Assembly: GCA_965655535.1 (NCBI GenBank)
Contig: CBFHGZ010000003.1
Span: 680-42,611 of the forward strand
Direction of reading: 5' to 3'
DNA length: 41,932 nt
Origin: Candidatus Actinomarina sp.
GTDB taxonomy: Bacteria; Actinomycetota; Acidimicrobiia; Actinomarinales; Actinomarinaceae
Under the pieces are notes generated by a model, which made no database searches, was not told where the DNA came from, and saw nothing but the letters and a program-made list of their open reading frames with translations. Both the position numbers and the translations under genes were made by a program. Position 1 is the stretch's first letter. The number at the start of each line of letters is the position of its first letter. Shown one piece after another: positions 5,585-34,326 of this stretch.

Positions 5585-6412
5585 ATGTATTTAATAAATG
5601 GTTCTGAGGTATCAAAAGAAAAATTCAATTTACCTATAGAAGACCTTTCTGTTTGGAGGGGTGATGGGGTATTTGAAGCAATTAAAATCCATAATGGTTA
5701 TCCATTTGGAATTAAGTTGCATATTGATAGATTAAAAAAATCTTGTCAAGACCAATTATTTTCGGGAATAAATTTTGAGGAAATAAAAGAAAACATTTTC
5801 CAAGTCGCAAAAGAATATGATTCTGGATATGTTCGAACTTTAGTATTAAGAGGGTCTGATGCAGATCAACATAATATTTATATATTTCATCAGAAACCTA
5901 TTACTTTTCCAGAAAATTTTTCATTACAATCTCAGCAAGCTCCATGGCATGCGGGTGGGGATTACAAGGAAGAAAACAGTGTATTGATAGCTAAAACGAC
6001 ATCTTATGCCTATAACGTTCGACATACAAGATATGCAGAATCAAATGGCTTTACAGATGCACTATTGCTTAACAAAGACAATATTGTTTTAGAGGGACCA
6101 ACATGGTCTATAGGATGGATAATTGGTGAAAATGTATTTGTATCAGATTTAGAGCTTGGAATTCTTGATTCAATTACAAGAAAGTATCTTCTCAATTTTG
6201 GTGAAAAAAACTTGTTGAATGTTTCATCAACAAAAATCTCTATTAATGAATTGTATGAAGTTGATTCAGCTTTTGTTATGTCGACAGCAAAGCATGGGGT
6301 GTTTGTAAATAAAATAGATGAAGTTGAATATGAAGAATCACCACTGGTTAAAAAAATTCAAAATTTATTTATTGAAGAAGTAGAAAAAGAAAGAAACAGT
6401 ATTCAAACTTAG
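5585..6412 (+). CDS. Class IV aminotransferase family protein (branched-chain/D-amino-acid aminotransferase or ADC lyase like)
   Basis: 275 aa with fold-type IV features: an N-terminal RGDGVFE motif, then LEG and SITR-type segments. The specific substrate cannot be assigned. Confidence 0.65.
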   Translation: MYLINGSEVSKEKFNLPIEDLSVWRGDGVFEAIKIHNGYPFGIKLHIDRLKKSCQDQLFSGINFEEIKENIFQVAKEYDSGYVRTLVLRGSDADQHNIYIFHQKPITFPENFSLQSQQAPWHAGGDYKEENSVLIAKTTSYAYNVRHTRYAESNGFTDALLLNKDNIVLEGPTWSIGWIIGENVFVSDLELGILDSITRKYLLNFGEKNLLNVSSTKISINELYEVDSAFVMSTAKHGVFVNKIDEVEYEESPLVKKIQNLFIEEVEKERNSIQT

Positions 6413-6420
6413 GAGGTACA

Positions 6421-7449
6421 GTGAGACTGACACAGTATTCACATGGCTCTGGTTGAGCTTGTAAACTCTCTCAAGGAGAGCTTGCTCAAGTTTTGAGTAG
6501 TTTTAGACAAAAAAATAAAGACAACAATGATGTTCTTGTAGGGTTAGATTCTCCCGATGACGGTGGAGTTATTCTGTTACCGAATGGAAGTAAAATTGTC
6601 CAAACTGTTGACTTTTTTACTCCCATTCTTGACGACCCTTATGATTGGGGTCGTGTAGCTGCAACAAATGCATTGTCTGATATCTATGCAATGGGCGGTC
6701 AACCTATTTCAGCTCTACAACTTGTAAGCTGGCCAAGAGATGAAATAGGTTTTGATATCCTTTCTAAGGTCATAGAAGGCGGCGCAGATGTAATGGCTTC
6801 TGCATCCTGTAGTGTTATTGGTGGACACAGCATTGAAGATAAAGAACCAAAATACGGCTTTGCTGTTACAGGCATCATTAATGATAAAATTTACACAAAA
6901 TCAAATGTACAAATCGGAGATAAACTGTACCTTTCAAAACCAATAGGATCAGGCATAATCTCTTCTGCAATAAAAAAAGGTATTGCATCAGATTCTGTGA
7001 TTCAAGAAGTAACGGGGATTATGACAGAATTAAACGATAGAGCACTTGAGTTAGCTAAAAAATTAAATGCTAATGCAATTACAGATATTACTGGCTTCGG
7101 CCTCTTAGGGCATTTGTCAGAAATGATAAAAGATGATTCAATTTCTGCAGAAATATTTTCTGAAAAAGTTCCAGTTTTAGATTCAGCACAGGAATATTTT
7201 GAAAATGGAATATTCTCATCTGGTAGTCAGAGAAATTACGAGTCTATTTCTTCAGATTTGAGTTTTGAAAAAGAATTAATTGATAAAGTAAAGTTGTTTT
7301 CAGATGCCCAAACAAGTGGTGGATTACTAATGTCAGTTCCAGATAATGGCTTGAATGAAATTGAAGAATTTTCAAAGAATTTTAATACCAAAGTCTGGGA
7401 AATAGGGCGTATTACTTCCCGTTATAACGGGAAAATAAATATCATATAG
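6421..7449 (+). CDS. selD: Selenide, water dikinase (selenophosphate synthetase) with in-frame UGA selenocysteine at 6454-6456
   Basis: GTG at 6421 sits 4 nt after AGGAGG (6411-6416). The 5' codons read V-R-L-T-Q-Y-S-H-G-S-G-TGA-A-C-K-L, matching the conserved SelD N-terminus RLTQYSHGxG(C/U)xCK. The frame is the same as track ORF 6493..7449, which aligns to SelD along its whole length (DFFTP, AATNALSDIYAMGG, GGHSI). Confidence 0.85.
6453..6500 (+). promoter_or_regulatory. Candidate bacterial SECIS hairpin overlapping and following the selD UGA
   Basis: Lower stem TTGAGC (6453-6458, includes the TGA) pairs with GCTCAA (6484-6489). Upper stem CTCTC (6466-6470) pairs with GAGAG (6476-6480), with apical loop TCAAG about 15-19 nt after the UGA. 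As an alternative fold, GCTCAA can pair with TTGAG (6493-6497). Confidence 0.45.
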
Positions 7450-7455
7450 ATTGAT

Positions 7456-8376
7456 ATGTTAAAAAATTTAACCAAGTTTGTTGCATTTACAGCATTTGTA
7501 AAAAGTCTTATAGAAACAAAATCTAGTAAGTCCACAGGTGTTACACAACTTCATCCCAGCAAAATACCTGGAAGGACTATCTTCATTAGGGAAAAAGAGT
7601 ACTTTATAAGAGAAAATTATGTGAACGGTACTATTCCAATAGTCTTTTTACATAGTTGGGGTTCAGATTCTCTTGGTAGCTGGTTCAAAGTATTGCCTTC
7701 AATAAAGCAAAAGTATTCTTTTGTTGCAATTGATTTAAGAAATCATGGAAAATCAGACGCTTCATGGGAACGCTGGGATGTAGATGAGAATGCAGATGTT
7801 GTAATCAGTATTTTACAAGAACTCGGTATAGAAGAATGTCATCTTGTAGGATGGTCAATGGGAAGTGCTGTAGCACTTGCCGTATCAAATAAAAAACAAA
7901 ACTTAATTAAGAAACTAATTTTAATAACTCCGTTTAGCTGGTTGGGTGGCGCGGTATATAAAGATAAACTAGCATTTAAGGCTTTTGTAAGTTTTGTAAG
8001 AATAAGAGAAAGGCTATTTCCAAATCTAAATCCACAGTCAAAGTTTTCTTTTCTAAAAAAATCTAATGCAATTAAAGATGAGTACACAGATTGGGCATGG
8101 AATAACTTACATAAACATAAAGATGATTTTATTTATGAAGATGGTGGTCGTTTTGTTGTACCTTATGATGCAAGGCCATGGCTAGAAAATATTAAATCTC
8201 AAACTCTAGTGATAACTGGAGGTAAGGACAGGCTGGTTCCTGAAGAAACTTCAAATGATGTAATTGATAGATTAGAAAATGTTTCAAGTATTGTATTTAA
8301 GGATGCAGGTCACTCTGTACCTTGGACCCATGCAGAAGAATTAATAAACTCAATTGAAGACTTCATAACTTCATGA
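7456..8376 (+). CDS. Alpha/beta-fold hydrolase
   Basis: 306 aa. It has an HSWG oxyanion-type motif, the nucleophile elbow GWSMGS, and a C-terminal GHSVP region carrying the catalytic His. Confidence 0.75.
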   Translation: MLKNLTKFVAFTAFVKSLIETKSSKSTGVTQLHPSKIPGRTIFIREKEYFIRENYVNGTIPIVFLHSWGSDSLGSWFKVLPSIKQKYSFVAIDLRNHGKSDASWERWDVDENADVVISILQELGIEECHLVGWSMGSAVALAVSNKKQNLIKKLILITPFSWLGGAVYKDKLAFKAFVSFVRIRERLFPNLNPQSKFSFLKKSNAIKDEYTDWAWNNLHKHKDDFIYEDGGRFVVPYDARPWLENIKSQTLVITGGKDRLVPEETSNDVIDRLENVSSIVFKDAGHSVPWTHAEELINSIEDFITS

Positions 8377-9503
8377 AAAGGGTACTATTTTTTTCTGCGA
8401 CTTATTACAACCTACCTCTTTCTGACAATTTAAAAAAGAAATTTCAATTTCTTAGTGAAGTATCAGAATGTACAGTTGTTGCTTTTTCTAATAAAAACAT
8501 TGAATTTCAAGAGGAGAACACGAACTTTTATATTTACAAACAAAGCAGCTTTAGAATTCTAAATTATCTAAAAATTTTGAAAAAATCGTATTTCGATCTC
8601 AATAAAATTATTAAAAAACAAAACATCGATATTGTGGCTTTTCAAGATCCAATCACAAGCTTTTTAGGATTCCTTAGAATAAAACAATCTCATCCAAATA
8701 TAAAAATAGTTTTAGAGTCACATGGAGATTTTATAAACACTCTTGGGATGGAAAAAAATGTGTTTCTACCAAGTCTTTACAAAAAAGCCTTTAATTCGAT
8801 TGCACAATACACAATAGACAATGCTGATATAGTTCGAGCTGTATCTTCATCAACAGAAGAGCAAGTTCTGTCATTTAATAAATCAAAAAATGTTGTTAGG
8901 TTTCCCGCTTGGATAGATTTTGAAGTTTATAAGAATGTAGCACCTACAAGAGAAGATAATCAAATATATAAAATATTGTTCATAGGTAGTGTGACTGATA
9001 GAAAAAAGCCTCATATGGTTATTGAAGCACTGCCTAAGTTAAATAATAAAAATGTTGAATTTCATATTGTAGGCCCTACTCCTAATCAACAATATTTAGA
9101 AAGAATTAACAACTTAATTGATGAGTACAATCTAGAAGATAAAGTTTTTATTCACGGTATTAAAGACAGAGACGAAGTTATTGAGTTTTATAAAACTTCA
9201 AATTTAATGATTCTACCTTCTGTTTCCGAAGGTCTTGCCAGAGTAATTTTTGAATCTCAAGTGACATCTTGTCCAGTATTAGTTACTGATGCCCCAGGCA
9301 TGCAAGATATCGTAATTGATGGTCAGACGGGATTTGTTTTCGAAAGTAATAATCTTGAATCTCTTGTATTAAAAATGAATGAAGTCTTTGATGATTACAA
9401 TCAAAGCATTCAAATTGGAAGAAATGCAAAAGATTTTATTCTAGAAAATTTTTCAGAGGAAAAATTTAAATTTAGTTTTAAAAAAATATTTGATCTGGTT
9501 TGA
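8373..9503 (+). CDS. Glycosyltransferase family 4 (GT-B fold)
   Basis: 376 aa with an ATGA overlap onto the upstream gene. The C-terminal EGLARVIFESQVTSCPVLVTD..G matches the E-x7-E GT4 signature region. Confidence 0.8.
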   Translation: MKRVLFFSATYYNLPLSDNLKKKFQFLSEVSECTVVAFSNKNIEFQEENTNFYIYKQSSFRILNYLKILKKSYFDLNKIIKKQNIDIVAFQDPITSFLGFLRIKQSHPNIKIVLESHGDFINTLGMEKNVFLPSLYKKAFNSIAQYTIDNADIVRAVSSSTEEQVLSFNKSKNVVRFPAWIDFEVYKNVAPTREDNQIYKILFIGSVTDRKKPHMVIEALPKLNNKNVEFHIVGPTPNQQYLERINNLIDEYNLEDKVFIHGIKDRDEVIEFYKTSNLMILPSVSEGLARVIFESQVTSCPVLVTDAPGMQDIVIDGQTGFVFESNNLESLVLKMNEVFDDYNQSIQIGRNAKDFILENFSEEKFKFSFKKIFDLV

Positions 9504-16299: not shown

Positions 16300-16530
16300 A
16301 TGGACAATGAAAGATATCCAACTCAAAAAAAACAATGGGTTTGTCCCAAGTGTGATAGTTCTTCTTTCACAGAAGATGTAGTCACAATGACAGGCAAATC
16401 ATTTTCAAGATTCATGAATATTCAGAATCGTAAATTTTCTGCAATTACCTGTAATGAATGTTCATTTACAGAGTTTTACAAAGGTGAATCTAAAGGTTGG
16501 GAAAGCGTAATCGACTTTTTAGGTAATTAA
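16300..16530 (+). CDS. Small zinc-ribbon protein
   Basis: 76 aa with two CxxC pairs (CPKC ... CNEC), of the DUF2082-like Zn-ribbon type. It shares a TTAA stop overlap with the convergent SDR gene. Confidence 0.5.
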   Translation: MDNERYPTQKKQWVCPKCDSSSFTEDVVTMTGKSFSRFMNIQNRKFSAITCNECSFTEFYKGESKGWESVIDFLGN

Positions 16531-20651: not shown

Positions 20652-20951
20652 CTAAAAATAATTTGCTGCTGCACGTTCAAACATCACGATTGCAAATAAT
20701 ATTAAGGCAAGAATCATTCCACCTACAAAAAACCTATTAACGGTTTTGTTTTCGTATCTAAGATGCATGAACCACCCAACAACAATTACAAACTTTCCTA
20801 TTGCAAGAATTATTAATAAAGGATCTGCCAAAGCACCAACAATATCTTCTGTGTAATATAAAGCAATTTCAATTGCTGTAAGAATGCCAAGAACGATTGC
20901 TATTTGGACATATTTCTTTGGCGTTGGATGTTCTACGTGTGCTTCAGACAT
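20652..20951 (-). CDS. ctaF: Cytochrome c oxidase subunit IV (prokaryotic COX4_pro type)
   Basis: 99 aa with 3 TM helices. The N-terminus HPTPKKYVQIAIVLGILTAIEI is typical of Bacillus/caa3 subunit IV. It starts 1 nt after the ctaE stop. Confidence 0.7.
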   Translation of the reverse strand: MSEAHVEHPTPKKYVQIAIVLGILTAIEIALYYTEDIVGALADPLLIILAIGKFVIVVGWFMHLRYENKTVNRFFVGGMILALILFAIVMFERAAANYF

Positions 20952-30559: not shown

Positions 30560-31912
30560 TCAATCCCATTGCAAGTGTAAAAATTCTTCAGAATCTAGCA
30601 ACTGCACTGTGTGAGCACCAAAGAAATCTCTCTGTGCTTGAATTAGATTTGAAGGGTTGTGTTCAGCGCTCATATTTAGATACCAATTTAATGTTGAGCT
30701 CATGACAGGTGTTGAAATATTATTTCTTATACAACCAGTGATTATAGTCTTTGCATCTTCGACAAGATTAGATAATCTATTTTGGATTTGAATAATCTCA
30801 AGTTTTGAATCACTATTTAAAAAGTCAGTCAACTCACTCAATAGATCTGAACGTATAATGCAACCGCCCATCCAATTTTTTAAAACTTCTGAAATTTTTA
30901 TATTTAGATTATGTTCAGTGCTAAAAAATTGTATAAACAATAAACCTTGAATTAAAGTTGCGAATCTTGAAAAATATACTGCTTTTTGCAGTTTATTCAA
31001 GTCAAGGCTTTCAGACATTTTTAACTCTTCTTGTTGCCAGTCATTCTTAAAATTGCTTTCAATCCTTGCATTTAAAGATTCATAAATAGCCGAGAGTGGG
31101 TAGCCGTAATCTAAGCTTGTTTGAACTGTCAACTTTCCAGTACCTTTATGATTAGCCAAGGGCTTTATTTGATCAATTAAGAAACCATCGTTGTTCTTTT
31201 TTTGAAATATTTCTGCAGTGATCTCTATTAAATAGGATGATTGTCCAATTTCTTTAAAACTTTCAAAAAAGTTACTTATTTTTATATTATCGAAGCCACT
31301 TGATCGCAAAACACTGTATGCTTCTGCAATAATTTGCATTTCTGCATATTCAATTCCATTGTGAAGCATTTTGATGAAGTGTCCGGTACCGAATCCTTCA
31401 TATATTCCAACACATGGAACGCCATCTTTTTTAGCGGCAATACTTGATAATATTTTTTGTAAGGTTTCATTTATTGGATCCTTTGAACCGATCATTAAGG
31501 CCGGACCATTTCTTGCACCCTCTTCACCACCTGATACGCCCATGCCAATAAACTTAACTCCTTTTTTTTCACAGAGATTTCCCATTTCATTGCTATCTAA
31601 AAAGTAAGAATTTCCGGCATCAATTATTAGGTCATCTTTATCTAGTAAATTAGTTAGGTCATCTATTACAGTTTTTGTAGCTTCTCCAGATGGCACTAAT
31701 AACATTACTGTTCTGGGCTTTTCTAAGTTTTCAACTAGAGTTTTTAAGCTTGTACAACCTTCAATGTTATTGTTTAAATCTTTATTAATTAGAGTATTAA
31801 TTTTCTCATCTGACTTGTTATAAACTTTTACGTTTATTGAATTATCTGACATATTTAATGCAAGGTTGGAGCCCATAACTCCAATTCCAACTAATCCAAT
31901 ATTTAGACTCAT
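30560..31912 (-). CDS. gnd: 6-phosphogluconate dehydrogenase (decarboxylating)
   Basis: 450 aa with the Rossmann motif GLVGIGVMGSNLA and the signature GMGVSGGEEGARNGPALM. It has an ATGA overlap with the hflX stop. Confidence 0.85.
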   Translation of the reverse strand: MSLNIGLVGIGVMGSNLALNMSDNSINVKVYNKSDEKINTLINKDLNNNIEGCTSLKTLVENLEKPRTVMLLVPSGEATKTVIDDLTNLLDKDDLIIDAGNSYFLDSNEMGNLCEKKGVKFIGMGVSGGEEGARNGPALMIGSKDPINETLQKILSSIAAKKDGVPCVGIYEGFGTGHFIKMLHNGIEYAEMQIIAEAYSVLRSSGFDNIKISNFFESFKEIGQSSYLIEITAEIFQKKNNDGFLIDQIKPLANHKGTGKLTVQTSLDYGYPLSAIYESLNARIESNFKNDWQQEELKMSESLDLNKLQKAVYFSRFATLIQGLLFIQFFSTEHNLNIKISEVLKNWMGGCIIRSDLLSELTDFLNSDSKLEIIQIQNRLSNLVEDAKTIITGCIRNNISTPVMSSTLNWYLNMSAEHNPSNLIQAQRDFFGAHTVQLLDSEEFLHLQWD

Positions 31913-33232: not shown

Positions 33233-33553
33233 TTATAAATATGTGCCACTGTCAGTTGTAGTAGAATTTTCTTCTTCTGCAATAATTTGAGATTCCCTTA
33301 CAGCTAAAACAACTTTTCCAGTTGGGGGCCAAATAAATTTCCACGCACCACTTGCTACTGCCCAAAACTGCTTTCCAGTGTCTATATCAATTAATGGCAG
33401 GGCTTCTGAAGTTTTTTCGCTACCTGCTGGTACAAGTAATCCAGATTTTGTAATAGTTTCGTCTTTTAAGTGACCTACGCGCCAACCAGGTGAGACTTTA
33501 AATCCTTCTGGTGCGAAATTCACTGAATCAATTAAATTCTGCTCTTGTTCCAT
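33233..33553 (-). CDS. Hypothetical protein (106 aa), no recognised family
   Basis: ATG-initiated ORF filling the gap between tRNA-Sec and hflX on the same strand. It has ordinary composition and no opposing gene. Confidence 0.5.
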   Translation of the reverse strand: MEQEQNLIDSVNFAPEGFKVSPGWRVGHLKDETITKSGLLVPAGSEKTSEALPLIDIDTGKQFWAVASGAWKFIWPPTGKVVLAVRESQIIAEEENSTTTDSGTYL

Positions 33554-33587
33554 GACATTATGATAAACGACTTTAATCTATAATTAG

Positions 33588-33679
33588 CGGAGGTGGACAG
33601 GAATCGAACCTGCCAAAGACTTTTACACCTTTCAACAGTTTTGAAGACTGTGGAGCCCACCAGGCGCTCATTCACCTCC
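33588..33679 (-). tRNA. selC: tRNA-Sec (anticodon UCA), CCA not encoded
   Basis: The reverse complement reads GGAGGTGAATGAGCGCCTGGTGGGCTCCACAGTCTTCAAAACTGTTGAAAGGTGTAAAAGTCTTTGGCAGGTTCGATTCCTGTCCACCTCCG. The long acceptor stem is GGAGGTG(A)/(C)CACCTCC with discriminator G. The anticodon stem ACAGT/ACTGT carries loop CUUCAAA, identical to the E. coli selC loop, with the anticodon at 33642-33644. There is a long variable arm, and the T-arm GCAGG-TTCGATT-CCTGT abuts the acceptor strand directly, the 8/5-type geometry. Confidence 0.85.
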
Positions 33680-33729: not shown

Positions 33730-34326
33730 ATGAAAAATTTTCAAACTGTTTTTAATAAGTTAAAAAATGAAAGAAACCTTACTAATAAACAGATAGCGTC
33801 TTTTACTGGTGCAAAAATAAAAGAAGTCAAGCAATGGGAGTCGGGAGTATCCTTTCCAACTGATTCAAAAACAATTAATGCATTAGAGGGTTTATTAGGT
33901 GCAGAGATAGTTAATTCTTTAAAGGCTTTTCAAAATGAAAACAATACCTCTAAAAGCAGCTTAACAACTACTGACGATTCACTATTTAGAGTGGAACCTT
34001 CTTCATTAGAAATAAAAGAAACATCTTTTGATAAATTTAGAGGTACTTTTCAGAGGAAGTCTGCAAAACCAAAAACATTTAATGAAGACGAAAGCTACGG
34101 TGCAGAATTAACAAACCATACAGCAACTCAAGATCAAAAGGCCGAAAATAGTTTATTAGTTGAAACAGATGAAAGTCCATATATTTTAGATCAAAATCAA
34201 TTGAGTTTTTACTTTTCAAGAAATGTAAAAACTGTATTAGCTATTGGGTTGCTTTTATTGGTTTCAGTTAACTTTGCTTCACTTCTTTGGGATTCTTTAA
34301 TTCAAGTTATTGAAAATTTGACATGA
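33730..34326 (+). CDS. XRE-type helix-turn-helix protein with C-terminal membrane anchor
   Basis: 198 aa. The N-terminal HTH is LKNERNLTNKQIASFTGAKIKEVKQWESGVSFP. A low-complexity linker is followed by a single C-terminal TM helix (VLAIGLLLLVSVNFASLLW). It has an ATGA overlap with ctaA. Confidence 0.65.
   Translation: MKNFQTVFNKLKNERNLTNKQIASFTGAKIKEVKQWESGVSFPTDSKTINALEGLLGAEIVNSLKAFQNENNTSKSSLTTTDDSLFRVEPSSLEIKETSFDKFRGTFQRKSAKPKTFNEDESYGAELTNHTATQDQKAENSLLVETDESPYILDQNQLSFYFSRNVKTVLAIGLLLLVSVNFASLLWDSLIQVIENLT

Follow-up and report, generated by a model that had tools for sequence, protein, structure and literature searches.

SelD, the selenophosphate synthetase, belongs with one other protein to the most widely distributed selenoproteins of bacteria, and that a SelD with Sec closes a self-dependent loop has stood in the textbooks since 1996. 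The first description of a bacterial Sec-containing SelD is reportedly that of Guimaraes et al. in 1996, from Haemophilus influenzae. In characterised SelD enzymes the Gly-rich loop that carries the equivalents of Cys17/Sec and Lys20 is essential. The Sec-type SelD of bacteria was surveyed by Zhang et al. 2006 (PMC1794560) and Mariotti et al. 2015 (PMC4561486). The earlier survey reported that all Sec-decoding organisms without FdhA have a Sec-SelD (PMC1794560), and in the later one the bacterial SECIS of Sec-type SelD genes was recovered with RNAz (PMC4561486).

For the genus Actinomarina, Nielsen & Lui (bioRxiv, April 2026; 10.64898/2026.04.03.716425) reported selA, selC and selD in 84 of 84 complete genomes, together with a divergent selB-like gene below the KofamScan threshold (268 vs 306) and no selU. 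A Sec-SelD of 342-346 aa with an MRLT prefix was predicted with deep-Sep in about half of the genomes, the remainder being 'presumably' Cys, and no SECIS was found using eukaryote-type Rfam models (10.64898/2026.04.03.716425). Sec-containing SelD is already known, in kind as well as for this genus. What we add is a probable location of the SECIS region with comparative support, which is a minor addition, and the observation that public databases show Actinomarina SelD either truncated or with a spurious Trp.

We analysed a stretch of 41,932 nucleotides (the window, with a GC content of 33.7%) from Candidatus Actinomarina sp. A mechanical ORF lister opens selD in this window at TTG 6493 and returns a product of 318 aa. 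A first-pass annotation, made from the sequence letters, had proposed that this start cuts off the catalytic N-terminal loop and that the gene begins at GTG 6421, with AGGAGG 4 nt upstream, and continues through an in-frame TGA; the sequence agrees with it. Reading in frame from GTG 6421 gives VRLTQYSHGSG-TGA(6454-6456)-ACKLSQGELAQVL and stays open to the TAG at 7447-7449, which makes 342 codons, and starting at the TTG removes 24 residues including the SelD catalytic loop. The features referred to below are the following.

6411..6416, plus strand: Shine-Dalgarno sequence AGGAGG, from the sequence, with a 4-nt spacer to the GTG and a GGAGG core in 7/7 Actinomarina variants.
6421..6423, plus strand: GTG, the true start codon of selD, from the sequence, the relatives and the SelD equivalog models, which align from profile position 1 at residue 2.
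6421..7449, plus strand: the coding sequence of selD in full, 342 codons (that for Sec among them) and the stop TAG at 7447-7449, from profiles and the alignment with E. coli SelD (3u0o).
6454..6456, plus strand: in-frame TGA, predicted to encode Sec as residue 12, at the position of Cys17 in E. coli SelD, from alignment and conservation.
6463-6465, plus strand: AAA, the codon equivalent to Lys20, from the E. coli SelD alignment.
6466..6480, plus strand: candidate SECIS-region hairpin 1, CUCUCU-CAA-GGAGAG, 6 bp, from folding and the comparison of Sec-type with Cys-type genes.
6482..6500, plus strand: candidate SECIS-region hairpin 2, UUGCUCAA-GUU-UUGAGUAG, 8 bp, from folding, covariation and the same comparison.
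6493..6495, plus strand: TTG, the false start of ORF callers, within the 3' arm of hairpin 2, from the ORF list and 19 public clusters of 318 aa.
33587..33679, minus strand: selC, tRNA-Sec with anticodon UCA, from ARAGORN and Rfam RF01852 (75.4 bits, gathering score 47).

The 342-residue product was searched against profiles with Cys placed at the TGA. It scored 367 bits with TIGR00476 (cutoff 125) and 343 bits with NF002098 (cutoff 299), and matched PF00586 and PF02769, the AIRS N- and C-terminal domains. The best match among solved structures was E. coli SelD (3u0o, E = 7.6e-77), in which query residues 1-338 aligned with residues 6-341. In this alignment SHGSG-U-ACK of the window stands against SHGAG-C-GCK of E. 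coli SelD, with the TGA opposite Cys17 and the next Lys, three residues on, opposite Lys20, where the first-pass annotation had placed them. The Asp/Asn motifs of the ATP and metal ligands (DD, T(T/V)DFF, NA(I/L)SD and TD(V/I)TGFG) are identical. The selD of the window is an intact SelD. Its AGGAGG overlaps the TAG stop (6410-6412) of the upstream gene, which encodes a class-IV aminotransferase.

The locus has the features of bacterial Sec-SelD of the H. influenzae type, namely a UGA at the Cys17 equivalent in the Gly-rich loop with Lys three residues on, a predicted stem-loop directly 3' of the UGA inside the coding sequence, a tRNA-Sec in the genome and the dependence of the enzyme on its own product. 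Nothing fundamental differs; the host is an aerobic, photoheterotrophic, streamlined marine actinobacterium of about 1.1 Mb with 34% GC. The window and the Actinomarina Sec-SelD of the preprint have in common the genus, the gene, the length of 342 aa, the N-terminal prefix and a selD-selC spacing of about 27 kb. In contrast to the preprint, candidate hairpins were located here and the TGA was seen in every Actinomarina variant examined, with 0 Cys among the best 120 clusters.

Relatives that lack the 11 codons upstream of the TGA would have spoken for the shorter gene, and we found that close relatives keep them. The SelD of the window is 98% identical at the protein level to that of a Candidatus Actinomarina MAG (L001), and seven close loci (L001 and L081-L086; 86-99% aa identity) have retained the TGA along with the 11 codons before it, the GTG and the RBS. 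In 7/7 distinct Actinomarina variants, which span 64-99% aa identity, the TGA and GGAGG were found with an ATG or GTG start; the codon homologous to GTG 6421 is ATG in L161, L165 and L167 and GTG in L168. Across the seven variants, most changes in codons 2-11 are synonymous and fall on the third position; the amino acid is altered only by Q to E and S to A. The conserved RBS and start, together with these mostly synonymous changes, show that the segment upstream of the TGA is translated and under purifying selection. In L085 (86%), two synonymous changes and no others separate the segment upstream of the TGA from that of the window. There are 0 substitutions between the two in 6430-6521, and gene-wide 141 of 1029 positions differ (13.7%). 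As 74 of the differences in selD are synonymous and 67 non-synonymous, the gene outside its N-terminal segment is also under purifying selection. A local hypervariable patch was seen near the C-terminus of SelD, at 7321-7380, where the window has 31 differences from L085; the other 60-nt bins have 2-16.

Among 159 SelD loci taken from genomes and metagenomes, 134 have TGA at this codon; the sample is enriched for relatives of the Sec-type query, so that the 84% is not a family-wide frequency. Peptide-pattern scans of genome and metagenome contigs returned the Actinomarina clade at 86-99% identity and then sequences at 49% or less, and missed a group at 63-66%. As this group of Actinomarina was recovered by protein search, the apparent narrow distribution of SelD in the genus is a search artefact.

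TGA is used as an ordinary stop elsewhere in the window. The stops of the 38 other ORFs are 8 TGA, 23 TAA and 7 TAG, and the TGA stops, including the three that had been named before (8374-8376, 9501-9503 and 30560-30562), fall at family-consistent C-termini, for example in Gnd, which reaches profile position 465/467; ATGA overlaps of start and stop also occur. This usage argues for site-specific recoding at the TGA of selD. The tRNA-Sec gene lies 27 kb downstream of selD. Profile searches found none of selA, selB and selU among the ORFs of the window. The first-pass annotation had reckoned with a decaying gene if a complete genome were without selA and selB, and complete genomes of the genus are reported with selA, selC and a sub-threshold selB (10.64898/2026.04.03.716425); selA and selB elsewhere in the genome are taken from this preprint or presumed.

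The neighbours of selC are hflX, a 106-aa ORF that matched no family (33233-33553) and an HTH protein (33730-34326), and selA and selB are not adjacent to it. In Table 8 of the preprint, about 2.1-2.7% of the chromosome lies between selD and selC, except in three genomes (0.044-0.048), and selA lies about 0.16 of the genome from selD (10.64898/2026.04.03.716425). In Supplementary Table 8 all genomes marked 'selC in HVR = Y' have selA/selC/selD at about 0.09/0.89/0.91, which is the mirror (1-x) of about 0.92/0.10/0.08 in those marked 'N'. The varying position reported for selC, which falls inside the hypervariable region in 32 genomes, appears to be an artefact of orientation, with an essentially constant spacing of selD and selC.

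We searched the segment 3' of the TGA for a SECIS, a check that the first-pass annotation had proposed. A first fold of 76 nt around the UGA gave a weak z of -0.94, and segment-wise folding and comparative data alone were informative. The two predicted hairpins follow each other within the coding sequence. In hairpin 1 the loop, a CAA that holds no G, is located 16-18 nt 3' of the UGA, and the hairpin folds at -6.3 kcal/mol (z = -4.2 vs shuffles); it has 6 bp in 5/7 Actinomarina variants and 4 bp in 2/7. Hairpin 2 forms 8/8 pairs in the window at -6.0 kcal/mol (z = -3.4 vs shuffles), and its apical loop, a GUU (6490-6492) located 33 nt beyond the UGA, coincides with the Val codon of a conserved AQVL motif. 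Compared with other bacterial Sec-SelD genes, for which the family mean is about -7 kcal/mol for hairpin 2, the Actinomarina hairpins are A/U-rich and weak, at about -6 kcal/mol each, which follows from the streamlined host with its 34% GC.

For the comparison of Sec-type with Cys-type genes we used a codon-registered segment of 113 unique Sec-type SelD genes from outside Actinomarina and 25 Cys-type genes, with phylogeny ignored in the statistics. At least 7/8 of the hairpin-2 pairs were found in 64/113 Sec-type genes vs 0/25 Cys-type genes (Fisher p = 2.7e-8, phylogeny ignored), and about 43% of Sec-type genes are without hairpin 2 in the register of the window. The loop of hairpin 2 reads GUN in 92 of 117 unique Sec-type genes (79%) vs 8 of 25 Cys-type genes (32%). 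Register-free folding energies also differed between the two types, being -5.3 vs -1.9 kcal/mol in the region of hairpin 1 (p = 1e-7) and -7.3 vs -2.3 kcal/mol in that of hairpin 2 (p ~4e-6), while two downstream control segments showed no Sec-vs-Cys difference in stability. On these comparisons, both hairpins appear to be Sec-specific across the SelD family.

In a gap-free family alignment, 68.7% of the cells of the two-helix structure were paired vs 58.3% after shuffling (reached in 0/500), and controls in which the structure was slid along the alignment gave 28-48%. The covariation score in the same alignment was 0.243 vs 0.135 shuffled (0/500) and 0.09-0.13 slid. Helix 2 had 74% of its cells paired, and 6/8 of its pairs were changed on both sides. 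Within Actinomarina, the pair that closes the loop of hairpin 2 changes from A-U to G-C, which is compensatory, and in L082-L084 an A replaces the G at 6484, which is nonsynonymous and gives an A-U pair in place of G·U. The 3' arm of hairpin 2 encodes LSS, LKQ or LTH and yet the pairing is kept, with a 1-nt bulge in the divergent Actinomarina species. In two loci from unrelated lineages with about 44% aa identity (L098:5990-6009 and L047:525-545), hairpin 2 is near-identical to that of Actinomarina (CTTACTCAAGTTTTGAGTAA and TTGACTCAAGTTTTGAGTCAG); this likeness could be low-GC convergence or could mean that the Sec trait has a common origin.

Run on all 115 Sec-type sequences, RNAalifold returned an empty consensus, which indicates that the Sec-type family is heterogeneous. 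With Rfam at gathering thresholds over the whole window, the tRNA-Sec was matched and no SECIS family was. A covariance model trained without Actinomarina found its best match in the window at 6470-6503 (16.3 bits, E ~0.1; runner-up 10.3 bits), and Cys-type SelD loci scored 16-26 bits at the homologous site. As several Cys-type genes score as high as the window, we dropped this model as a discriminator of Sec and Cys; it mostly reads coding conservation or fossil SECIS. Four Cys-type sites scored 20-26 bits with it (L073:2953-2990, L009:2947-2984, L033:2227-2264 and L040:2968-3005), and they could be fossil SECIS from recent Sec-to-Cys conversions, or just coding conservation. Agreeing with these scores, some Cys-form SelD genes are known to retain remnant SECIS-like structures (PMC1794560).

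We also considered a long-range stem of UGAGC (6454-6458), in which the Sec codon lies, with GCUCA (6484-6488) of the 5' arm of hairpin 2. Such a stem forms a long hairpin capped by hairpin 1, excludes hairpin 2 and is present in the minimum-free-energy folds of several Actinomarina variants. This stem was not adopted; at its middle, A stands against G in the consensus of the family, a mismatch, and it would have to melt with the UGA in the ribosomal A site.

The bSECISearch consensus attributed to Zhang and Gladyshev (2005) is said to ask for a G (GU) in the apical loop and for a loop 16-37 nt from the UGA. Hairpin 2, with its GUU loop at 33 nt, fits this consensus. The GU loop of E. coli fdhF lies about 19 nt after the UGA, compared with 33 nt in the window. 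The window shares with the fdhF SECIS, to which SelB binds and which serves as the bacterial reference, a predicted hairpin less than about 50 nt 3' of the UGA and a G-U in the apical loop, here that of hairpin 2. Hairpin 1 has its loop at an E. coli-like distance (about +20), whereas hairpin 2 has the GU loop and the better-conserved register. The fdhF SECIS is one hairpin of 40 nt, while the window would have two consecutive short ones, and no bulged U is evident in the window, the divergent Actinomarina variants having the 1-nt bulge in the 3' arm.

Taken together, the alignment with Cys17, the conserved TGA and upstream codons, the Sec-specific hairpins, the tRNA-Sec and the use of TGA as a stop elsewhere support site-specific recoding of UGA to Sec in a full-length SelD, as opposed to the codon reassignment that the first-pass annotation had also set aside. 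We consider it very probable, from the sequence comparisons, that this selD of Candidatus Actinomarina encodes a 342-residue selenophosphate synthetase with Sec as its catalytic residue 12.

Public records of the gene give a different picture. All of the 19 public clusters at 85-99% identity were called at 318 aa, from the TTG. Among the best 120 database clusters, 20 are N-terminally truncated (these 19 and one fragment of 263 aa) and 100 are full-length calls with W at the Sec position; a large group at 63-66% identity was called at 344-350 aa, with W at the critical position. The DNA of the W-type records that we examined (L161-L168) shows TGA, and the database protein was not reproduced under table 11, so the W is an artefact of gene calling with code 4. 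In their gene order the contigs of the W type match the window, and their GC is about 31%, so that they belong to other Actinomarina species. Cys at the Sec position was found in 0 of the best 120 database clusters, and no Cys-type Actinomarina SelD was found; that none was present among the sequences reached calls into question the presumption of the preprint that half of the genomes carry Cys. In the databases an abundant marine gene is recorded as a 318-aa fragment without its catalytic loop, or with Trp for Sec, and automated surveys would misjudge it.

These W-type records speak for a reading of the UGA as a standard amino acid, either as Trp under code 4 or by non-Sec read-through with Cys or Trp. 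W stands at the site in 100 of the best 120 database homologues, and the metagenome gene callers picked a code with sense TGA for these contigs. However, TGA closes 8/38 ORFs of the window at family C-termini and with ATGA overlaps, Trp in place of the catalytic Cys/Sec would probably leave SelD inactive, and a dedicated tRNA-Sec and apparently Sec-specific hairpins are present. We regard a standard amino acid at this position as very unlikely. When selenium is scarce, the Sec machinery could occasionally insert Cys, but this would be a by-product of one and the same mechanism.

That the TGA is a genuine stop, with selD decaying or with only a truncated SelD made from TTG 6493, is extremely unlikely. 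Mechanical ORF calling and the 19 public clusters do begin at the TTG, and selA and selB are not among the ORFs of the window. But the truncated product would be without the Gly-rich loop and with it the equivalents of Cys17/Sec and Lys20, and the TTG has no RBS of its own and lies inside the conserved hairpin. Down to 64% identity, relatives share the TGA, the RBS, the start codon and, with mostly synonymous changes, the 11 codons upstream; the remainder of the gene is under purifying selection (74 synonymous vs 67 non-synonymous differences against L085), and a tRNA-Sec is present. A sequencing or assembly error, with TGT or TGC as the true codon, has a negligible probability, as it has in its favour only that TGA is one base from TGY, and the same TGA recurs in over ten assemblies made independently by different projects on different sequencing platforms (L001, L081-L086 and L161-L168).

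The model that the evidence favours for recoding to Sec in the full-length enzyme is the standard bacterial route of Sec insertion, as follows. Initiation would take place at GTG 6421 and the ribosome would arrive at the UGA (6454-6456) with the mRNA just 3' of it folded as the predicted tandem hairpin (6466-6480 and 6482-6500). As in the bacterial systems that have been characterised, SelB with the Sec-tRNA(Sec) made from selC (33587-33679) would be tethered to the apical loop of a hairpin, and Sec would be delivered in competition with termination by release factor 2, which would be outcompeted. SelB binding and the incorporation of Sec at the UGA are thus modelled on those systems. The full-length enzyme would then carry Sec in its selenide-handling loop, and SelD would depend on its own product.

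The first-pass annotation had read the gene as such a self-dependent loop kept in a streamlined genome. Our results support this; the principle has been known since 1996, and the Actinomarina case was described in the April 2026 preprint (10.64898/2026.04.03.716425). If a streamlined photoheterotroph of about 1.1 Mb keeps a Sec apparatus in which SelD is self-dependent, selenium supply may be a hard requirement for an abundant ocean bacterium. More tentatively, and in our judgement unlikely as a whole, Sec-SelD could be fixed genus-wide in Actinomarina and decoded through the tandem hairpin, with the divergent SelB contacting the GU loop of hairpin 2 at 33 nt from the UGA. If true, one of the smallest genomes of a free-living organism would have a SECIS whose geometry is somewhat atypical.

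A scan for TGA codons that join two coding segments in frame and an inspection of all gaps longer than 60 nt, which held ordinary small ORFs, revealed no other selenoprotein genes in the window. The HdrD/GlpC-like family has selenoprotein members. A gene for a CCG/4Fe-4S protein of this kind, with a nitrate-reductase-gamma-like membrane domain, occupies 1-1824 on the plus strand and runs off the left edge of the window; the part that is present has no in-frame TGA. Of the gaps left by ORFs of at least 100 aa, the two widest, 16300-16530 on the plus strand and 20652-20951 on the minus strand, both hold small ordinary ORFs with no in-frame TGA. The first of these encodes a zinc-ribbon-like protein of 76 aa with two CxxC pairs, and the second a membrane protein of 99 aa, located between the gene for cytochrome oxidase subunit III and a ctaG-like gene.
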